Shown here: positions 5,475 through 5,993 of the stretch, in pieces | Layout: each line of letters starts with the position of its first letter | How positions within the stretch are numbered: the first letter of the stretch is position 1 | Source: a virus | Lineage: Duplodnaviria; Heunggongvirae; Uroviricota; Caudoviricetes | IMG/VR virus record: IMGVR_UViG_2671180298_000006 | Coordinates: 1-8,131 of that record | Length of the DNA stretch: 8,131 nt | Direction: 5' to 3' (one strand) | Position numbers and translations under genes: made by a program | Notes under the pieces: model-generated | What the model was told of the DNA's origin: nothing | Database searches by the model: none | The model's input: the letters and a program-made list of their open reading frames with translations, nothing else

Positions 5475-5993
5475 ATGAGGCTAACCGTGGGTAAGCATCA
5501 CTGGAAAGTAGAAAAACAGCCTGAGTGGTACGTGAAAGCTGTCAGAAAAACTATCGCGGCGTTGCCGGGGGGTTACGCTGAAGCTGCTGAGTGGCTGGAT
5601 GTAACAGAGAACGCTTTATTCAACCGCCTTCGTGCAGATGGCGATCAGATTTTCCCGCTGGGATGGGCAATGATTTTACAGCGCGCGGCTGGCACTCACT
5701 ACATTGCGGATGCTGTCGCACAGTCTGCTGGTGGGGTGTTTGTATCGCTTCCTGAAATTGAGGAAGTAGAGAACGCCGATATAAACCAGCGCCTGCTGGA
5801 AGTCATCGAACAGATCGGGAGTTACTCAAAGCAGATTCGTTCGGCAATCGAAGATGGGGTAACGGCTGGGAGACGGCGACAGAGCTTGTGGAGGACACGC
5901 AGGCCATTGCCCGTTACGGTCGTAACGTCACGAAGATGGATGCCTTTGGCTGTACCAGCCGGGGGCAGGCGCACCGCGCCGGGCTGTGGCTGA
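5475..5993 (+). CDS. CII-like regulatory protein (phage 186 CII / CP76-type), 3' end replaced by out-of-frame tail-fibre DNA
   Basis: ORF track 5475..5993. The segment …[43 protein letters not shown]… resembles the CII/CP76 family (compare phage 186 CII …LRNKLNPEQPHQFTPPELWLLTDL…, from memory). The start could be the ATG at 5475 or the GTG at 5487, which has GAGG 6 nt upstream. After about codon 128 the frame runs through J-homologous DNA in the wrong frame to a stop at 5991-5993, so the C-terminal 40 or so residues are probably not native. Confidence 0.5.

Follow-up and report, generated by a model that had tools for sequence, protein, structure and literature searches.

The window, i.e. the whole 8,131-nt stretch of DNA analysed here, combines the early arm of a lambdoid prophage with the distal portion of a lambda-J-type tail gene (Table 1). 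Up to position 5861, it follows a dusA-integrated lambdoid prophage, that of E. coli CDF6, through the early arm with only two mismatches, SNPs at 821 and 4395, the first of which is synonymous and leaves the protein unchanged. The accessory genes of the left arm (1-3791) follow the same order as in the dusA prophages of CDF6, NT1F34 and EC21Z-101. At its left edge, the Panacea-domain gene (SocA-like antitoxin) overlaps the 139-aa ORF by 4 nt, and the two may constitute a toxin-antitoxin pair; EC21Z-101 has another Panacea gene with another partner at the corresponding place. The first three letters of the window are the ATG of the Panacea gene and lie ~250 bp from the left prophage end; the window may correspond to a whole short contig flanked by repeats (the lom/tail-fibre region on the right and, as in NT1F34, perhaps an IS on the left). 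Between yfdP and the repressor gene, positions 3792-4477 (~690 bp) contain no gene annotated in any comparator and no Rfam match, and the 110-aa ORF at 4049-4381 had no PHROG match. Rfam detected no known RNA in the window.

Table 1. Features of the window, DNA-verified ymfL junctions and positions of the reverse transcriptase (RT) and SLATT gene pair. Slashes mark breakpoints.
Feature	Position	Strand	Evidence or remark
Panacea-domain gene	1-573		Pfam/PHROG scans
139-aa ORF, PHROG 19071, function unassigned	570-989		Pfam/PHROG scans
PrtN-like gene	1250-1531	-	Pfam/PHROG scans
PHROG 14996 gene	1568-2401	-	Pfam/PHROG scans
YfdQ/DUF2303 gene	2539-3363	-	Pfam/PHROG scans
YfdP gene	3429-3791	-	Pfam/PHROG scans
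CI-like prophage repressor, LexA/S24 peptidase family, 224 aa, intact	4478-5152	-	Pfam Peptidase_S24, 1.5e-26
Cro-like HTH gene, YdaS family, 66 aa, first in the rightward early operon	5243-5443	+	CDF6/cdtI annotation
Chimeric ORF, 172 aa	5475-5993	+	YmfL to ...SAIEDGV (129 residues), then 43 wrong-frame J residues, chance stop
ymfL'	5487-5861	+	First 375 nt (125 codons from the annotated GTG) of a 552-nt CII-like regulator gene; Pfam PF06892, PHROG 101
Hotspot sequence in ymfL			GATGGGGTAGTGGAGCCA
Deletion junction	5860/5861		2-bp microhomology TA: ymfL GGGGTA/GTGG, J CCGGATA/ACGG; three-way alignment and base-by-base comparison
J', lambda-J-type tail tip/host-specificity gene	5862-8131	+	Codons 408-1163 of 1165; N-terminal 407 codons and start missing
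nt-375 junction, window			To J nt 1221
nt-375 junction, L011			To gpG
nt-375 junction, L016			To upstream of rusA
nt-375 junction, L013-15			To KilA-N/DUF968 region
nt-375 junction, L225			To late methylase/holin region
nt-375 junction, L226			To small-terminase region
nt-375 junction, L010			To lom
nt-375 junction, L018 (IMG/VR)			To upstream of Pin-like invertase, adjoining int and dusA
nt-375 junction, L228 (finished EC21Z-101 chromosome)			To gpL start
+9-nt junction, L009			To J Ig domains
+9-nt junction, L012			To Mu-type tail sheath, SfV-like prophage
+9-nt junctions, L017 and L227			To rusA region
RT and SLATT pair, L004	5194-7093		
RT and SLATT pair, L007	29474-31373		
RT and SLATT pair, L009	14443-16342		
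RT and SLATT pair, L228	12364-14263		

The repressor gene opposes a rightward early operon in which ymfL' lies directly downstream of the cro-like gene, an order identical in CDF6 and in phage cdtI. The CDF6 locus matching 4478-5152 exactly is annotated as a LexA family transcriptional regulator; the gene at 5243-5443 is assigned to the ymfT/YdaS family in CDF6 and named 'cro' in cdtI, its matches to Pfam YdaS_toxin and HTH_3 being weak. The initial annotation had recognized a CII-like gene immediately upstream of the junction, and profile searches agree with this assignment: Pfam PF06892, 'Phage regulatory protein CII (CP76)', scores 55.4 bits with the intact homologue and 42.2 bits with the window copy (cut-off 26), and PHROG 101, 'CII-like transcriptional activator', gives 1.1e-72 with the intact homologue. 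By family, the gene is a CII of the phage-186 kind, called YmfL in E. coli and distinct from lambda CII. A single experimental statement about YmfL was found, namely that its over-expression caused no filamentation (bioRxiv 10.1101/2020.11.19.390815). Intact YmfL counts 183 aa from the annotated GTG, and 187 aa from an alternative upstream start, the ATG at 5475 in the window. The window copy matches positions 5-123 of the 146 of the PF06892 profile and retains residues 1-125, the 3' 177 nt of the gene (58 codons) being deleted. It is identical to CDF6 ymfL through 5861, with the first divergence at 5862. Since homologues (183-187 aa) continue beyond this point with a different sequence, ymfL does not end at the junction.

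To the right, positions 5860-8131 show 0 mismatches over 2,272 nt against nt 1221-3492 of the intact 3,498-nt gpJ gene of E. coli CUVET16-819, and the 30 nt left of 5860 show 21 mismatches against J. The encoded protein is 74% identical to lambda J residues 408-1131 (BLASTP, through the window end) and carries the Pfam domains Phage-tail_3 (entered at profile position 78 of 164), Ig_J, Ig_J_second, Phage_Tail_Tip and Ig_GpJ_C. No in-frame full-length J start and no upstream tail genes are present; homology begins at residue 408, with ymfL DNA upstream in place of tail genes. Because the frame is closed by a TGA at 5759-5761 and offers no start-like codon before a GTG at 5888, which is devoid of a ribosome-binding site, J' is a pseudogene. 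The window ends in frame 6 nt short of the J stop codon, so that the right end of the element lies outside it. A 431-aa ORF antisense to J (5822-7117, minus strand) is unsupported and represents a usual by-product of G+C-rich coding DNA.

An abrupt junction had initially been placed within 5840-5880, with J homology starting at about 5861, roughly one third into the protein. Comparison with the parental sequences fixes this junction to the base, at 5860/5861, and BLASTP begins at the codon at 5861, corresponding to N408 of 1132 residues (36%), in accordance with the peptide that had been quoted. A set of 5,426 complete E. coli genomes, searched by BLAST with positions 5400-6400 and with the full window, returned thousands of matches for each half, those of the left half ending at 5860/5861 and those of the right half beginning at 5857/5860. 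In the three-way alignment, ymfL reads ...GAAGATGGGGTA/GTGGAGCC, J reads ...GACCCGGATA/ACGGCTGG and the window reads ...GAAGATGGGGTA/ACGGCTGG. As both flanks are kilobase-scale near-perfect matches to separate loci, the junction does not result from chance. A short microhomology had been anticipated at this place: the parents overlap by TA alone, within GGGTA versus GGATA (4/5 matches), a 2-bp microhomology that by itself is expected in ~16% of random joins. With few shared bases and no extended homology between the parents at the join, the junction has the features of microhomology-mediated illegitimate recombination. No IS element, repeat, hairpin or recombinase site was found there.

The 5,426 complete E. 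coli genomes contained no place covering at least 80% of the junction-spanning 1,001-nt or 8,131-nt query, and BLAST found no phage or plasmid record covering 80% of the junction-spanning query. An exact search for the 32-nt junction string found nothing in the contigs of species-representative genomes, of metagenomes or of IMG/VR viruses, and the chimeric protein, read from either start, was absent from the protein collection by exact look-up. With no second copy in any collection searched, the junction rests on this one sequence, and the deletion event is private. It is probably recent as well, since 2.3 kb of dead J show 0 differences from the intact allele. The ORF spanning the junction has the chimeric structure initially described, with a C-terminus made of frame-shifted J DNA (Table 1), and a homology search in 5.8 billion protein clusters found no protein covering its out-of-frame tail of 43 residues. 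This ORF is not a real gene, being a by-product of the deletion, and ymfL' and J' are to be annotated as pseudogenes.

Mapped against intact lambdoid relatives, the two breakpoints, adjacent in the window, stand 27,487 bp apart in the CDF6 prophage and 27,443 bp apart in phage cdtI; the interval that normally separates cII from J is absent, as the initial annotation had stated. In CDF6, this interval comprises a DUF4222 gene, ash, a replication-type HTH gene, PerC, methylases, RusA, KilA-N and DUF968, together with the antiterminator, a lysis cassette, the terminase, portal and protease/capsid genes, and the tail genes through J codon 407. Replication, antitermination, lysis and head modules are all missing between the early regulators and J, which characterizes a defective lambdoid prophage and bears out the earlier description of the element as a cryptic remnant.

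We consider it likely that the window records one internal deletion of ~27.4 kb in a dusA-type lambda-like prophage, generated by microhomology-primed illegitimate recombination. Such an event would have removed the last 58 codons of ymfL together with the replication, Nin-like, Q, lysis, terminase, head and tail genes up to J codon 407. The joining would be RecA-independent: a DNA 3' end at ymfL ...GATGGGGTA would have paired with J ...CCGGATA through its last 2 nt and a loose upstream match, before extension or ligation in J. Given its gene content, the remnant is unable to replicate, to lyse its host cell or to make particles, and retains its repressor/cro switch and the accessory genes of the left arm. 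Taken alone, the junction is an ordinary deletion scar, of a well-known kind of prophage decay.

In this scenario, both parents would have belonged to one mosaic prophage. The J allele, however, is 100% identical to that of a thrW prophage and only 95.3% identical to that of the CDF6 dusA prophage. The thrW prophage of CUVET16-819 provides the sole 100% match to J, and the ymfL of that prophage is a different allele, ~91% identical as judged by the closely related PT109 copy. Among the genomes that best match either arm, the left arm and this J allele did not occur together, the best 20 left-arm genomes and the best 40 J-allele genomes having no member in common. The allele identities and this lack of overlap would also agree with a join between two prophages of one chromosome, linking the dusA early arm to a J located for instance at thrW through a large deletion, an inversion or a translocation. 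We regard such a join as unlikely, however, as J alleles move freely among lambdoid prophages and both prophages read from cro to J the same way on the K-12 map; given this common orientation, deduced from gene orders, a direct dusA-thrW join would delete ~0.65 Mb including dnaB and would be lethal. Moreover, EC21Z-101, NT1F34 and L009 show that simple internal deletions of exactly this architecture occur in dusA prophages.

Simple internal deletions are indeed common in this prophage family: an HTH gene is fused to a tail fibre in the dusA prophage of NT1F34, and ymfL is fused in frame to the J Ig domains in L009. An HTH gene is likewise fused to J in the thrW prophage of PT109. In PT109 (L001 6921-7172) and NT1F34 (L007 27097-27387), the left deletion ends ~250-290 nt into the HTH replication-type gene, which may constitute a second recurrent endpoint, perhaps at the origin. 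The dusA prophages also carry a reverse transcriptase and SLATT-domain gene pair, adjoining DinI and the integrase and kept in every remnant examined, which likely represents anti-phage cargo.

The ymfL endpoint of the window recurs in other elements. A protein search returned many singleton YmfL fusion proteins, and the DNA behind them was retrieved for comparison with intact ymfL. In nine independent junctions, ymfL stops after nt 375, at ...GATGGGGTA/ or at the synonymous allele ...GGGGTC/, and in four others it stops 9 nt further right, at ...GTGGAGCCA/ or at the allele ...GTGGAACC/ (Table 1). The nt-375 endpoint reads ...GATGGGGT(A/C), at window 5852-5861; the intact sequence of the site is found at L003 25852-25871. 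All 13 of these junctions, verified at the DNA level, use one of two ymfL positions separated by 9 nt, and their right ends all differ and lie 0.2-35 kb downstream. As the neighbouring repressor, cro and tail genes differ among the loci, the endpoint is a property of ymfL itself.

In a census of fusion proteins with a break at codon 125 or later, simple frameshifts left out and incomplete below codon ~100, codons 125-128 account for the breaks of 15 of the 20 fusions (P = 3e-14, binomial test with a uniform model). Nine events fall at codon 125 and five at codon 128, codons 100-124 receiving ~0.4 per codon. Seven of the 961 complete-genome records with this ymfL allele match only partly across the site, and the one inspected ends exactly at nt 375. 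Minor breakpoint clusters, with several different partners, were noticed at YmfL codons 98, 103/104 and 109 (window ~5780-5815). The right ends of L016, L017, L013 and L227 lie within ~1.6 kb of each other in the LexA-like/rusA/kilA-N region (L003 29166, 29552 and 30048; L227), and the right ends of the hotspot junctions may not be random either. No description of a recurrent ymfL endpoint was found in the literature searched.

For all identified right-hand parents except that of L009, the terminal 2-4 nt are common to ymfL and its partner, inside a loose match of 6-9 nt. Facing ATGGGGTA/ or ATGGGGTC/, the partners read CCGGATA/, TGGGATA/, TGGTGTA/, CATGGTA/, CAGCTA/, TGGTTC/ and CGGTTC/, and facing GGAGCCA/ or GGAACC/ they read GAAGCCCA/ and GGCACC/. 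For L009, the closest parent allele found reads GTGGCAGCG/ and has no terminal base in common. Any internal mismatch within the microhomology patch takes the ymfL base, which is the signature expected of a fixed 3' end priming on a microhomologous template, not of a random crossover in the patch.

This regularity also bears on the possibility that the window junction is an artefact, caused by a chimeric read or contig or by an assembly error. Such an origin would agree with a junction unique to the window and with flanks free of the mutations that a long-dead pseudogene would carry, but de Bruijn assemblers cannot join sequences with 2 nt in common, and the left breakpoint coincides to the nucleotide with that of eight further independent junctions, which come from unrelated projects and one of which lies in a finished chromosome. 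The terminal TA plus loose GG match is likewise the signature of the other junctions; a random chimera would give neither, which makes an artefact very unlikely. Hardly credible at all is a functional fusion, with the 172-aa chimera or an N-terminally truncated J being expressed and selected: the ORF begins at the native start of ymfL and would be translated whenever the early rightward promoter fires, and truncation at YmfL residues 125-128 recurs, but the 43-aa tail is out-of-frame J with no match in the protein collection, J' begins inside a Pfam domain with neither start codon nor ribosome-binding site, and no particular tail is selected, since those of the other recurrent truncations are unrelated and may be in any frame.

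Several potential causes of the hotspot were considered and rejected. Partner availability was counted for each ymfL position as the number of downstream sites with at least 6/9 matches that also agree in the terminal 2 nt; by this measure the hotspot 9-mers fall at the 10th-55th percentile of ymfL positions, and the count peaks at GCCTGCTGG, coinciding with the minor breakpoint cluster at codons 103/104. Fold z-scores are ~0 and the site has no repeats or inverted repeats, which discards hairpins, cruciforms and repeats. A pseudo-cos cleavage by terminase was dismissed too, the phage cos end GGGCGGGAGCGT resembling the site loosely and out of register. The sole Chi octamer of the window, GCTGGTGG at 5727-5734 (plus strand), lies inside ymfL and is oriented against RecBCD entering from the right; correctly oriented, it stands 126 nt left of the break versus the 4-6 nt expected, and its presence is probably a coincidence. 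Insertion of an IS followed by deletion left no IS at any of the 13 junctions, the last candidate, P0017, being another plain deletion. The Pin invertase was rejected as well, as the L018 junction lies ~35 nt from a pix-like site, adjacent to it and not at it. The endpoint bears no recombinase site, IS end or cos-like sequence of the kind that a site-specific or transposase-mediated deletion would use.

Regarding CRISPR self-targeting, in no complete genome was the best match to the site a partial one of spacer length. A search of viral contigs for reciprocal, right-fixed deletions, of low statistical power, returned none, its 85 matches corresponding to the synonymous GTC allele. A weak terminator-like hairpin with a T-run was observed at 5786-5799 on the minus strand, inside ymfL, and a perfect TTGACA was seen by eye ~100 nt upstream of it on the minus strand of intact ymfL (L003 ~25888-25915; deleted in the window). 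Inspection by eye revealed no good -10 element with this TTGACA, and a promoter scan found nothing; the hairpin and the TTGACA could nevertheless delimit a candidate OOP-like antisense RNA crossing the hotspot.

As a tentative reading, which we hold to be possible without being probable, codons 125-128 of ymfL (GATGGGGTA/GTGGAGCCA/C, window 5852 onward) might act as a sequence-specific fragile site, and by this means as a built-in inactivation route. A lesion in the form of a nick, staggered break or stalled 3' end would recur at these codons, possibly on derepression of the early rightward operon, and its rescue would proceed by microhomology-primed joining to sites that vary from case to case, 0.2-35 kb downstream. 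The two endpoints, separated by 9 nt, would then represent the two edges of one lesion, GTGGAGCCA. A stalled nascent 3' end, e.g. at a G-cluster R-loop during derepression of the early operon, would be a candidate, as would a nick or staggered break.

In E. coli K-12, the cryptic lambdoid prophages Rac, e14, DLP12 and Qin, like 'grounded' defective prophages in general, retain immunity genes and some tail-end or cargo genes, and have lost replication, lysis and morphogenesis genes by internal deletions, with truncated genes at the joins. The e14 element carries the name-giving ymfL beside its cro and repressor genes. The architecture of the window is alike, whereas its junction is a different, private event, much younger than those of the K-12 relics, with parents still 100% identical to intact alleles. 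Closer to the window, the dusA remnant of EC21Z-101 (NZ_CP101240.1) has the same left arm and repressor/cro genes, and its ymfL is cut after the same 375th nt (...GATGGGGTA/), directly followed by tail-gene remnants and then by RT/SLATT, DinI, int and dusA. Its right partner is the gpL start, followed by an older gpL-to-tail-fibre deletion, and that of the window is J codon 408; because the right partners differ, the two events are independent. A 66-nt piece of the gpL start persists in EC21Z-101 between ymfL' and the truncated tail-fibre gene (L228 9060-9125), and this remnant derives from two successive deletions, since the gpL-fibre join exists in viral contig L095 with an intact ymfL site.

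Among complete, functional genomes, phage cdtI (NC_009514) and Shigella phage SfV both have this ymfL allele, matching window 5600-5861 at 100%, and the match stops at 5861. Phage cdtI has the same cI-cro-ymfL order (cI, cro, orf43) and a lambda-type J, but keeps its two breakpoints far apart. Lambda lysogens offer precedents in hotspot illegitimate recombination (formation of Spi-/lambda-bio phages) and in Int-promoted deletions with one fixed endpoint. These deletions resemble the ymfL junctions in their nucleotide-recurrent endpoint, their varying partners and their short imperfect homology. By contrast, the ymfL junctions involve no att site, no recombinase site and no long homology (9-13 bp perfect), and their fixed end lies inside a CII-like gene, across prophages with differing repressor, cro, tail and integrase genes.

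Accounts of prophage 'domestication' usually invoke random deletions on which selection then acts. The 13 independent deletions compared here come from unrelated isolates and metagenomes and all start at one of two nucleotides; some stop in the gene that follows, and others extend as far as the opposite end of the prophage. If a site-specific lesion is involved, it would provide a concrete, testable mechanism of natural lambdoid prophage inactivation, as well as a simple k-mer marker for remnants, CAATCGAAGATGGGGT followed by A or C without GTGGA next. If the fragile-site reading is true, a widespread prophage family would be repeatedly turned into harmless remnants that keep their immunity and cargo genes.
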